The notes under the pieces: generated by a model
What the model was told of the DNA's origin: nothing
Databases searched by the model: none
Seen by the model: the letters and a program-made list of their open reading frames with translations, nothing else
Made by a program: the position numbers and the translations under genes
Shown here: piece by piece, positions 25,503 through 28,449 of the stretch
How positions within the stretch are numbered: the stretch's first letter is position 1
How the letters are laid out: every line of letters starts with the position of its first letter
Source: Candidatus Paracaedibacteraceae bacterium
Lineage (GTDB): Bacteria; Pseudomonadota; Alphaproteobacteria; Paracaedibacterales; Paracaedibacteraceae
NCBI GenBank assembly: GCA_019636035.1
Contig: JAHBYI010000001.1
Span: 147,508-179,507 of the forward strand
DNA length: 32,000 bases
Reading direction: 5' to 3'

Positions 25503-25641
25503 AACATCCCTTCCTTTTGTTATTTATTAATTACCATTGGTTTTGAAAGAAATATATTCAGTTTCTGCCTCATTTTAAACCTTTATTTTAGGTTATGCTG
25601 TGTGCGAGAATATGAAAAAATGACCTACCCCCTTGAAATTA

Positions 25642-28449
25642 ATGACTAAAATTAATTCAAAAAATATTATTGATCTATGGACAGCCCTCGAAGTGTTATC
25701 GCCACAAGGGTTCATTCGCCCCGATGATCTGGCCTTAGGCGATAAAAAGCAAGCCCAACAAATTACAGAACAAGCCCTGCCGTGGGAACCCAAGTATCAA
25801 AGCACCATCGATCAGCATGCACCATTCTTTCAAGTGATCCTGGGCACGATTAATTTGCCTCATGCCATGGCAGCTCTCCATAAAACTTATGCAGATTCTA
25901 ACCCCGAACGAAGGCCTGCACGAGGCAACGCGATCATTGCAACACTGACCCTGGATCAAACAGGCCGACTGATTGATGAAGACCCTATTTGCATCTCAAG
26001 TTTTGCTTGGGCACTTCCTCTTGCTCTACGCGGTAATCTGGAAAAATTGGGGGATTGGGTTTCTGTTGAAGCAGCTCTTAAAGCCACAATTTATAATGCC
26101 CTTAAGAAAGAAGAGGATGATTCTGAAGAAACACTAACCTCTAAGCCTGCACAGCTGTATATCACGTTTGAAGATATTCAAAGGGCTTATCAAGCACTCC
26201 TCCAAGCAATGCACCTTTCTCCTGACATGACGCAAGCCCCCTACTTTGTCGTTAAATCATTTCAATACGTTCGCCCTCCTCTTGCCAATGGCAAAACATT
26301 TGAACCGGATCCTCCTGATCCCCTCCTTTTAAACTCGTTCTATATTGATGACTTGCTCAAGGCGAATGAATCTCTTGCAGATGACACTCTTCCTAACCTT
26401 GCCAGAAAGTACATTGAGCAAAAGCAAAACAACCCAAAATGCTTATTAAGCAACCCCACAGCCCTTGTTCGTGCTGTCTCACCGGCACGCATGCCTTCCG
26501 GCGCATGGCCACATGCCGGGGGACATACCTTGAATCTGTTACAGCAAGCCGCCGTCAACATGGCTATGGAGCTCCACGATACACCAGCGATCTTGTCGGT
26601 GAATGGCCCCCCTGGCACAGGTAAAACCACGTTGCTACGCGACATTATTGCAGCCATTGTCACCGAACGCGCTCGCGTTATGTGCGACTTTGACTATCCC
26701 ACAGATGCCTTTGTAGAAACATCCTTTGAAAAAACAGTAACAGGCACATCTTATAGTCCATTTAAACTTGATCAACGTCTCAAAGGCTTTGAAATTCTGG
26801 TTACGTCATCGAACAACAAGGCTGTTGAAAATATCACAGCAGAATTGCCAATCCGGACAGCAATCGACACGTTTAGCCCTCTATCCTATTACAAATCCTT
26901 TGCCGATAAAGTCTTAGAAAAAGATACGTGGGGATTAATGGCCGTTCCTTTGGGTAACCGTAATAATCGCTATCAATTCCGTCGAAATTTCTGGGCTGAT
27001 AAAAAAACCGGATTTCGCAATTACCTCTATACGGTACGCGGATTCAGGAAAAAAGGAGCAGACGGAGAGAATCATTTTCCGGACGAAATACATCCCATCG
27101 GTAAAAAGGCAGCCCGTACGCAGTGGCAAAAAATACGCACCGCGTTTTTAACAGCCATCGATCAAGTTGATGAAGCGTTCCATGAGCTTCACACCCTCTG
27201 CGACCTTGTTAATAACGATCCCATAGCCCATCAGCAAAAAATTGATGCTCTTGTTGAAAAACACAAAGGACAGCAGATCACGCTTGATTTTCTTAAACGC
27301 CCGCCACAGGAAATTCATCTGATAACACCCTGGATTGATACTGTTTTAGCACGCAAACGTACACAAGTCTTTGAAAAAGCAATGGCTGTCCACAAAGCCT
27401 TTATTGATGCAGCCCCCGAGCCTATTCTCAACAATCTAGGGATTTTACTGAATGATTTTGGATCGTCATCCTTAGGCTCAGAAGGGGCTGACGCCTTAAT
27501 CCCAGATCTGTGGTCGACCTTGTTTTTAGTGATTCCTGTGATCTCGACAACGTTTGCATCCGTTGCCAAGATGTTCCCGCGTATAGACACACCCTTTCTT
27601 GGTTGGGTCTTAGTGGATGAAGCAGGGCAAGCTTTACCGCAAGCAGCCCTTGGAACACTCATGCGCAGCCACCGCGCCATCGTTGTTGGTGATCCGTTGC
27701 AAATTGAGCCTGTCATGCCCTTGCCCGATACGTTGACAACGGCTCTTTGCGACCGTTTTGGGCTTCCGGCTAAACAATATGCGCCCCCCTTTGCATCAGC
27801 TCAGAATCTTGCTGACGCCATATCCTCCATCGGGTCAGTACTCGGCGAATCCAACCGTACAGTCGGCCTCCCCTTACTGGTGCACCGCCGTTGCAGCAGC
27901 CCTATGTTTGATATCTCCAACCGTGTGGCCTATGGGAACCTGATGGTGCAGGCAAAAATACCAACATCATCTCGCATCAAATCAATTATTGGTGAATCCC
28001 GCTGGATCCACGTCGAAAGTGAATGGGATGAGAAGTGGGCTCCGCTCGAAGGCGAAGTTGTCCTCAAGATTTTGTACCACCTGCGCCAAAATCATTGTGC
28101 GCCCAACCTTTATGTGGTAACCCCCTTTGCTATCATCCAAAACAAAATTCGGGAACGACTACATGCCAGCGGCATTTTAAATGGATGGGTTGAAAACCCT
28201 CGACGCTGGCTCTATGAGCATGTGGGGACAGTCCATACCGTCCAAGGACGTGAAGCCGAAGCCATCGTCTTTGTTCTGGGAGCACAAGATCCGGAACATG
28301 CCCAAGCCCGACTCTGGGCTGGGAAAAATCCAAACCTTGTCAATGTGGCTGTCACACGCGCCAAAGAAGCCTTATATGTAGTCGGCAATCGCAATCTGTG
28401 GAAAGAGTGTGGCTACTTCAAGGAATTAAATGATGTCCTGATGCCTTGA
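25642..28449 (+). CDS. Upf1/DNA2(NAM7)-like superfamily 1B helicase with an unassigned ~295-aa N-terminal domain
   Basis: Residue numbers follow the 938-aa ORF that starts at TTG 25633. Motifs: Q-like LNLLQQAAVNMA (aa ~300), motif I GPPGTGKTT (aa 325-333, nt 26605-26631), Ia VTSSNNKAVENI, II VLVDEAGQ (aa 659-666, nt 27607-27630), III VVGDPLQIEPV, V TVHTVQGREAEAIVF, VI NVAVTRAKEALYVVG. About 260 aa are inserted between Ia and II. The ATG at 25642 is preferred. No SD precedes either start. Confidence 0.8.
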   Translation: MTKINSKNIIDLWTALEVLSPQGFIRPDDLALGDKKQAQQITEQALPWEPKYQSTIDQHAPFFQVILGTINLPHAMAALHKTYADSNPERRPARGNAIIATLTLDQTGRLIDEDPICISSFAWALPLALRGNLEKLGDWVSVEAALKATIYNALKKEEDDSEETLTSKPAQLYITFEDIQRAYQALLQAMHLSPDMTQAPYFVVKSFQYVRPPLANGKTFEPDPPDPLLLNSFYIDDLLKANESLADDTLPNLARKYIEQKQNNPKCLLSNPTALVRAVSPARMPSGAWPHAGGHTLNLLQQAAVNMAMELHDTPAILSVNGPPGTGKTTLLRDIIAAIVTERARVMCDFDYPTDAFVETSFEKTVTGTSYSPFKLDQRLKGFEILVTSSNNKAVENITAELPIRTAIDTFSPLSYYKSFADKVLEKDTWGLMAVPLGNRNNRYQFRRNFWADKKTGFRNYLYTVRGFRKKGADGENHFPDEIHPIGKKAARTQWQKIRTAFLTAIDQVDEAFHELHTLCDLVNNDPIAHQQKIDALVEKHKGQQITLDFLKRPPQEIHLITPWIDTVLARKRTQVFEKAMAVHKAFIDAAPEPILNNLGILLNDFGSSSLGSEGADALIPDLWSTLFLVIPVISTTFASVAKMFPRIDTPFLGWVLVDEAGQALPQAALGTLMRSHRAIVVGDPLQIEPVMPLPDTLTTALCDRFGLPAKQYAPPFASAQNLADAISSIGSVLGESNRTVGLPLLVHRRCSSPMFDISNRVAYGNLMVQAKIPTSSRIKSIIGESRWIHVESEWDEKWAPLEGEVVLKILYHLRQNHCAPNLYVVTPFAIIQNKIRERLHASGILNGWVENPRRWLYEHVGTVHTVQGREAEAIVFVLGAQDPEHAQARLWAGKNPNLVNVAVTRAKEALYVVGNRNLWKECGYFKELNDVLMP

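Follow-up and report, generated by a model that had tools for sequence, protein, structure and literature searches.

A compact Upf1-like helicase of a large nuclease-free bacterial family, and a candidate single-protein immunity factor, in Candidatus Paracaedibacteraceae

The helicase gene and its protein

The window analysed here is a 32,000-nucleotide stretch of the genome of a Candidatus Paracaedibacteraceae bacterium, and our subject is a stand-alone gene within it that encodes a Upf1-like helicase. A preliminary description, made from the sequence alone, had placed a superfamily 1B (SF1B) helicase of about 935 amino acids (aa) in the open reading frame (ORF) at 25633-28449, and the ORF list, the translation and Pfam all confirm this. 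Read from TTG 25633 the frame has 938 codons, with the stop after residue 938. The length of about 935 aa is borne out, but TTG 25633 is not the start: ATG 25642 is kept in two aligned relatives, which read TTA at the TTG position, and the public annotation of the same protein gives 935 aa. We therefore take ATG 25642 as the real start (Table 1). No Shine-Dalgarno-like sequence was found upstream of it, as had been reported. With 935 open codons and more than 2,000 homologues, the frame is far beyond chance.

Table 1. Coordinates of the helicase gene, the parts of its protein and its upstream region in the window
Feature	Position	Strand	Basis
Helicase gene, 935 aa from the conserved ATG	25642..28449, stop codon included	+	ORF list, translation, relatives, public annotation
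Family-specific N-terminal domain, residues 4-295, mixed alpha/beta	25642..26517	+	Profile search, model, fold searches, conservation
RecA-like domain 1, first part (Q-motif 26530-26559, Walker A 26605-26631, motif Ia 26794-26835)	26518..26835	+	Motifs, Pfam, family alignments
Mostly helical insert between motifs Ia and II, residues 402-655	26836..27597	+	Whole-protein model, pairwise alignments, insert lengths
End of RecA-like domain 1 and RecA-like domain 2 (motif II 27616-27630, III 27688-27714, V 28228-28263, VI 28345-28365)	27598..28446	+	Motifs, Pfam, MkoC alignment, Foldseek
Divergent intergenic region, 139 nt, common to the helicase gene and the oxygenase-kinase-regulator operon	25503..25641	.	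Sequence, promoter scan, two-relative alignment

By its motifs, Pfam scores and fold, the protein is a Upf1-like SF1B helicase (COG1112). The motif set is complete: the Q-motif LNLLQQAAVN (residues 300-309), motif I or Walker A GPPGTGKTT (325-333, with the Walker lysine K331), Ia ILVTSSNNKAVENI (388-401), II DEAGQ (662-666), III GDPLQIEPV (686-694), V TVHTVQGREAEA (866-877) and VI VAVTRAK (905-911) with its arginine finger. Each motif quoted in the preliminary description was located in the translation, and the motif residues are invariant in family alignments of 26 and of 78 members. Pfam AAA_11 and AAA_12 match at 58.3 and 45.3 bits, both with cut-offs of 27. The whole-protein model has a predicted local distance difference test score (pLDDT) of 86 and a predicted template modelling score (pTM) of 0.86, and its top Foldseek matches are Senataxin, Upf1, Aquarius, IGHMBP2, Sen1, Dna2 and ZNFX1 (E 1e-17 to 1e-10), with a Foldseek probability of 1.00 against 8ftm, 8rd3, 2xzl, 4b3g, 5mzn, 5ean and 9q9z (E 8e-17 to 1e-10). 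The protein ends 27 residues past motif VI, and neither a nuclease nor a kinase family of Pfam matches it; the lack of a C-terminal nuclease, noted earlier, thus holds.

The large insert between motifs Ia and II, previously put at about 260 aa, spans about 254-270 aa, is mostly helical in the model, with one helix of 38 residues at 491-528. Compared with the long coiled coil of the family it is shortened, with about 140 aa missing, including a conserved RPGF..RLF element; the distance from motif Ia to motif II has a median of 405 aa among 78 members, against 270 in the window copy. We take the insert to occupy the topological position of the Upf1 1C insertion.

The N-terminal 295 or so residues, to which the preliminary description could assign nothing, form a confidently modelled domain (pLDDT 86.9, pTM 0.81) that resisted assignment here as well. 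When the domain was searched with Foldseek against the Protein Data Bank (PDB), no match fell below E 0.5; the highest Z among 48,161 chains compared by VIA-align was 5.0, on a stretch of 49 residues, a value at the level of chance; and the viral structures of BFVD yielded no match under E 0.15. No solved structure was thus matched by either Foldseek or VIA-align. The domain family is absent from PHROGs, Pfam and NCBIfam, and an ESM Atlas shape search returned only its own family. An exhaustive HMMER search with the domain alone found 428 representatives, of which the best 150 listed were all family members or fragments with no other architectures; fusions in proteins longer than 1642 aa were not found, which is weak evidence. 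Blank fold searches do not by themselves prove a new fold. One candidate identity, DUF4011, came from a weak Atlas feature lead (0.79, within the chance range) and was rejected, as hhalign against a DUF4011 alignment built for this analysis gave a probability of 0.07%. Conserved in 93% or more of a diverse set of 78 members are W16, E20, P50, W51, G111, S235, F236, D240, P284 and W292. This set is rich in aromatic residues and has two acidic residues only, and thus does not resemble that of a standard metal nuclease.

A widespread family and a variable chromosomal slot

Searching 5.8 billion proteins and scoring 8,000 candidates, we found 2,236 matching clusters; the best 120, almost all with lengths of 1040-1190 aa, score 800-925 bits. 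A Rhizobium protein and a metagenome protein align colinearly from residue 11 to the last residue, with 38-40% identity in the N-domain and 51-57% in the C-terminal half. In the long forms the helical insert is about 140 residues longer, and many also carry an N-terminal extension of about 110 aa. Members are 44-57% identical across phyla, and those of a 26-member cross-phylum alignment are 44-47% identical to the window protein. Because colinear homologues occur in thousands of clusters, the gene is not an orphan but a compact member of a large unnamed family. Judged from sequence, the family architecture is a specific N-domain, a RecA-like domain 1 with a helical or coiled-coil insert, and a RecA-like domain 2, with no nuclease.

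A genome scan with the family alignment located relatives in 531 of 598 candidate stretches, from Alpha-, Beta- and Gammaproteobacteria, Bacteroidota, Acidobacteriota, Verrucomicrobiota, Nitrospirota, Campylobacterota, Bdellovibrionota, Desulfovibrionaceae, Gemmatimonadota and Spirochaetota. Most fetched loci are chromosomal contigs, and members are common among free-living bacteria of soil and water; near-full-length copies also occur in 22 plasmid records, many of them conjugative or mobilisable. The tree mixes phyla, with at least 10 changes needed for Pseudomonadota and with sister pairs that cross phyla or classes (Nitrospirales with Paracoccaceae, Proteus with Sinorhizobium). The window copy nests, on a long branch, among long Rhizobiales-type forms. 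Its nearest relatives are all bacterial and its similarity to eukaryotic Upf1 is remote (E 2e-8), so that the alternative offered by the preliminary description, a eukaryote-like helicase acquired horizontally, is not supported. Short N-domain-only proteins proved to be broken genes, one by a frameshift and one by an IS3 insertion; a third case is a lone 486-aa N-terminal ORF beside which no helicase gene is called. A 'phage' match, Kp4866-6, is an unverified, unannotated record and was set aside as evidence. A patchy, transferable and at times broken gene is typical of accessory, sometimes costly genes and is compatible with defence.

We clustered the ORFs of 77 loci and typed 143 immediate neighbours by Pfam. 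Helicase aside, no cluster of neighbours is found in more than 9 of the 77 loci, so the gene has no partner gene, and the 143 neighbours fall into 131 Pfam families. Strong defence matches among them are to SngB/SngC (Shango), BrxC/D and BrxHI (BREX), DpdF (Dpd), PDC-S28, PDC-S33, PDC-S41, PD-Lambda-3 and PsyrT; markers of mobile elements include ArdA and type IV coupling proteins of the TrwB/TraG kind. In Pedobacter the copy begins 12 bp past a type I restriction-modification operon, and in Nitrospira it lies inside an integrase/transposase island. Plasmid copies adjoin a restriction endonuclease and an NYN-domain gene in Xanthomonas, and sit among insertion sequence (IS) elements and an HNH/ATPase pair on an IncF plasmid of Klebsiella. 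Some homologues thus lie beside restriction-modification, Shango, BREX or Dpd genes, but the signal is modest and others lie among core genes. Defence enrichment among the neighbours is only suggestive.

Closer to the window, relatives at 71-94% identity are 933-935 aa long, and one that is 79% identical is annotated as Candidatus Paracaedibacteraceae bacterium. The loci read, at 78% identity, keep the gene order tuf, response regulator, kinase, oxygenase-like gene, helicase, MORN gene, vgrG. Nonsynonymous divergence (dN) is 0.08-0.15, and the dN/dS ratio (omega) is about 0.04 in all computable parts, including the N-domain, which is an upper-level estimate only, since synonymous divergence (dS) is saturated among the available relatives. 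Such strong purifying selection implies that the gene is functional and has long resided in this sub-lineage. Across the order, the family was found in 11 of 62 genomes (51 without a match) and, within the genus, in one of four other genomes (three without a match), most of those without a match being 90-100% complete. Whether homologues are housekeeping genes, syntenic across the clade, had been raised as a point that would tell against the proposed anti-phage or anti-plasmid role; synteny and purifying selection do mark the nearest relatives, but the gene was not found in three of four congeners and its slot varies, and we class it as accessory rather than housekeeping.

That slot, beside tRNA-Tyr, is variable within one genus, holding a compact allele, a long allele or no helicase. 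In the lineage of the window it contains the signalling operon, the compact helicase and the vgrG-MORN pair. In the tree, the window's clade has as its sister a long form of 1117 aa, on a metagenome contig whose RplA is 93-98% identical to that of four other genomes of the genus; this allele (L147:7749-11415) directly follows tuf, tRNA-Gly and tRNA-Tyr, with no signalling operon or vgrG adjoining. The compact and 1117-aa alleles are about 50% identical and the flanking core proteins 92-98% identical, which means that the allele has either diverged very fast or been replaced. Another congener, whose two flanks are 93% and 88% identical at the nucleotide level, has no helicase in the slot, only an unrelated 1.9-kb segment with a split carotenoid-oxygenase gene of the RPE65 family (L148, G003:C1:1794600-1796560). 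The compact form is derived, since it nests within long Rhizobiales-type forms and its spacing from motif Ia to motif II is 270 aa against the median of 405. Sequence comparison thus reads this copy as a compact derived allele, lacking about 140 aa of coiled coil and the N-terminal extension, in an amoeba-associated sub-lineage of Paracaedibacteraceae.

Other arrangements of the neighbouring modules were seen in the genus. A congener has vgrG-MORN followed by co-oriented HlyD-type and AcrB-type efflux genes, with no helicase (L121, G003:C1:2431000-2450999), and in another the oxygenase-kinase module occurs with neither helicase nor vgrG, so the three modules that make up the block in the window are independent of one another. 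A close strain (L144; GCA_034675325.1, JAUCDI010000035.1) carries a helicase fragment 98% identical to the window's, in a gene split into 204 + 652 aa. The essential tuf is split too in that assembly (192 + 202 aa), so these frameshifts are probably sequencing errors rather than signs of pseudogenes.

The window's genome also holds a trace of a second family member. A family profile match outside the window (G000:C1:357894-358247) lies in a 145-aa ORF (G000:C1:357834-358271; L110:7835-8272) that shares 37% identity with residues 8-124 and breaks off within the conserved SSF motif. The ORF is followed at 55 nt by an AbiEi/AbiEii pair and then by recA, and no orthologue of the ORF was found in the sister genome. 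We read it as the probable 5' remnant of an independently acquired, divergent family member, displaced where an abortive-infection module now sits. At a locus of another genome of the order (L111:4459-4956; G018:C1:12458-12955), a 165-aa ORF weakly resembles N-domain residues 10-131 (E 4.5e-4) and lies upstream of a 417-aa ORF without a Pfam family and of that genome's own helicase of 997 aa; this ORF may represent a further relic or else a sub-domain that was duplicated.

The immediate neighbours of the window gene are an oxygenase-like gene and a MORN-repeat gene by Pfam, and the vgrG-MORN pair lies 843 nt away, convergent to the helicase gene. The preliminary description had placed the gene in an accessory block near tRNA genes. 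The accessory character fits a slot that varies among congeners, but the two tRNA genes are the usual ones upstream of tuf and no obvious integration site; no integrase was seen within the stretch examined (22-32 kb), and a search for direct repeats flanking the gene found none. The gene is G+C-richer than the adjacent operon, as had been stated, but only modestly: its G+C content is 47.4% (44% at third codon positions), against 38-40% in the three operon genes and 42.9% in the genome, and z=1.8 puts it in the top 1.8% of the genome's 2.8-kb windows. A promoter scan of the upstream region found only weak sigma-70-like matches, in a number close to chance expectation. In the convergent gap between helicase and MORN genes, no terminator-like hairpin was found for either gene; a 16-nt direct repeat there (TAGATATCTCATGAAA / TACATATCTCATGAAA, 41 nt spacing) lies at 28475-28531.

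The tuf region itself calls for caution. With tuf and its tRNAs at 21099-22538 of the window, the assembly has a single tuf, and tblastn detected no rpoB, rplK/A/J/L or nusG. Congeners have the order tRNAs-tuf-secE-nusG-rplKAJL-rpoB, and the window's tuf has the tRNAs upstream and rpsJ downstream. Given the single tuf and the missing genes, the chimeric context most likely reflects two tuf copies collapsed into one with loss of the intervening segment, and is probably an assembly artefact, not biology.

Relation to known defence helicases

Among PADLOC profiles the best match is MkoC (PDLC03924; 198 bits, over profile positions 504-948 in the best stretch), followed by MkoA at 97 and 52 bits; all others, among them Hhe, Nhi, AbiO and GajB, stay below 30 bits, and no NCBIfam model comes near its own cut-off. 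As a control, the MkoC profile was run against 301 genomes: true MkoC proteins reach 951-1267 bits across positions 1-1134, and the window gene 129.7 bits over 620-948. Two true MkoC proteins carry a C-terminal PLDc_2 domain, of which there is no match in the whole 97%-complete genome of the window.

The likeness to MkoC lies in a single large protein with a Upf1-like COG1112 helicase and a helical insert between motifs Ia and II, in 27% identity to a true MkoC over residues 627-923, and in a stand-alone gene of patchy distribution. Unlike MkoC, the window protein has no C-terminal phospholipase D (PLD) nuclease and scores far below true members. Its N-terminal 290 or so residues have no detectable relation to those of MkoC: when the N-domain profile was aligned by hhalign with each of two MkoC N-termini, the probabilities were 0.2% and 1.4%, although the MkoC side consisted of single sequences, so that very remote homology is still conceivable. 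The type I proteins MkoA/MkoB share with it the RecA-like domain 2, through the MkoA matches, but the window protein has no serine/threonine kinase domain and no adjacent or distant PLD partner. Mokosh defence needs both the ATP site and the PLD site, and in type II the PLD nuclease is at the C-terminus, with an HxK(x)4D site required for defence (Millman et al. 2022 preprint, 10.1101/2022.05.11.491447). We conclude that the window gene encodes a Mokosh-like motor but is not a Mokosh system.

Hhe and Nhi (nuclease-helicase immunity) are likewise single-gene defence proteins built on an SF1 Upf1-like helicase. Hhe reportedly joins DUF4011, a helicase and a Vsr/DUF559 endonuclease (Gao et al. 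2020). The window protein differs from it in reaching only 27 bits against NCBIfam NF042953 (cut-off 2000) and 14.8 bits in PADLOC, in having no Pfam match to DUF4011 or DUF559, an N-domain unlike DUF4011 and no C-terminal endonuclease; the Nhi profile covers the Walker A region only, at 16 bits. Eukaryotic Upf1-like helicases (Upf1, Senataxin/Sen1, IGHMBP2, Aquarius, Dna2, ZNFX1, MOV10L1) share the fold and motif set, supply the top structural matches and are the only solved relatives found by sequence, remotely so (E 2e-8 to eukaryotic Upf1, and about 1e-8 for Upf1 and IGHMBP2). Their CH, 1B, nuclease and zinc-finger accessory domains were not detected in the window protein, whose N-domain and coiled-coil insert are specific to the bacterial family. 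The Upf1-like superfamily translocates 5'->3' on single strands, an activity that the window protein is likely to have in common.

Interpretation and implications

We judge the chances about evenly balanced that this gene encodes an accessory, single-protein factor of nucleic-acid immunity or against mobile elements, with a motor related to that of Mokosh. The preliminary description had proposed a single-gene anti-phage or anti-plasmid candidate; accessory status, patchy and mobile distribution and the MkoC-like motor agree with it, but the defence role is circumstantial. The analysis establishes the identity, architecture and intactness of the helicase, its family membership, the lack of a nuclease and of a partner gene, a patchy and mobile distribution, and purifying selection. 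For substrate, polarity, N-domain role and defence role we infer the following scheme. An ATP-driven motor would translocate 5'->3' along single-stranded RNA or DNA of the invader, such as transcripts or intermediates of replication or transfer. The N-domain and helical insert may form a sensing or gating module, or may be an unrecognised effector. Interference could then arise if nucleoprotein complexes of the invader were remodelled or stripped, or if a host nuclease were recruited, steps we propose because the protein lacks PLD cleavage or any other nuclease of its own.

Tentatively, the whole family might be a new kind of single-protein immunity without a nuclease, in which a Upf1-like motor is joined to an N-domain of previously unseen fold and translocation or remodelling alone would block phage or plasmid. 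The N-domain would then either sense invader nucleic acid or protein or be a new effector, a division of labour that we consider possible rather than probable. If immunity is its function, the family could, by analogy, be a bacterial counterpart of the helicase-only eukaryotic antiviral factors Upf1, MOV10 and ZNFX1, a parallel that we also draw with reserve.

Several observations weigh against a defensive function. The defence signal among neighbours is modest, with about 10 strong matches in 143, and a Mesorhizobium copy sits between minCDE and metH, ordinary genes. The family is present in seven of seven genomes of genus g13, stably kept in small genomes, which is less typical of fast-cycling defence genes, and the gene is stably kept in the window's lineage too. 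Few polar residues of the N-domain are universally conserved (E20, S235, D240), which is atypical for a metal-dependent nuclease, and the PLD site required in Mokosh is absent here, leaving the effector step without an identified basis. A literature search found no experimental paper on the family and no experimental test of any member.

Part of this evidence would suit a cellular helicase for RNA surveillance, for clearance of R-loops or termination, or for DNA repair, as with Upf1, Sen1 and IGHMBP2. The closest solved structures (Senataxin/Sen1, Upf1, IGHMBP2, Dna2), the strong purifying selection and long-standing synteny with nearest relatives, the g13 distribution and the copies among core genes all point that way. 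A cellular role is nevertheless unlikely, given that 51 of the order's 62 genomes and three of the four other genomes in the genus gave no match, most of these being 90-100% complete, the different gene in the slot of a near-identical congener, the presence of the family on plasmids and mobile islands across phyla, and the frequency of broken copies. We likewise give a small chance to the gene serving the mobile elements that carry it, in replication, transfer, competition or counter-defence, with chromosomal copies as stranded cargo. Full-length copies on 22 plasmids, many conjugative or mobilisable, and neighbouring genes for type IV coupling proteins, ArdA, relaxase and partition, among others, fit such a role. 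However, the position of the gene with respect to transfer or replication genes is not fixed, no neighbour is conserved, most fetched loci are chromosomal, and the window copy is under purifying selection without mobile-element genes around it; nor does plasmid context discriminate, because defence genes are common cargo of such elements.

The proximity of vgrG-MORN, the amoeba-associated host lineage and the Upf1-type helicase also bring to mind a eukaryote-like helicase secreted into the amoeba host, for example via the VgrG/type VI apparatus, to alter host RNA metabolism. This we regard as very improbable: the gene is convergent to vgrG-MORN and outside that operon, a congener's vgrG-MORN is accompanied by HlyD/AcrB efflux genes instead of the helicase, the helicase of another congener has no vgrG beside it, and a family common in free-living bacteria, with nearest relatives nested within Rhizobiales forms, does not suit such a role. 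A bona fide Mokosh, of type II or of type I with its nuclease encoded elsewhere, has hardly any probability left. It is suggested by MkoC and MkoA as best PADLOC matches, but 198 bits stand against 951-1267 for true MkoC, the protein ends after motif VI where true MkoC proteins have PLDc_2, that domain has no match elsewhere in the genome, there is no kinase domain, and the N-terminal regions have no profile similarity.

The family is abundant, with thousands of sequence clusters in hundreds of species from at least 10 phyla and on plasmids, yet its N-domain has no Pfam or NCBIfam model and the family has no entry in PADLOC (2023 release). The window copy is a naturally minimised form of 935 aa from which the distal coiled coil has been deleted; as it is still under purifying selection, the deleted part of the coiled coil is dispensable. 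At its chromosomal slot the gene is present, missing or apparently replaced by another allele, depending on the congener, and the same genome holds the relic of a second copy beside an AbiE module. If the proposed defence function is true, the family would show how a Mokosh-type motor works without a nuclease and would give a function to a confidently modelled domain without structural relatives. If it is not defensive, the family would still be an unexplained and widely transferred helicase, annotated merely as an AAA or DEAD/DEAH protein.

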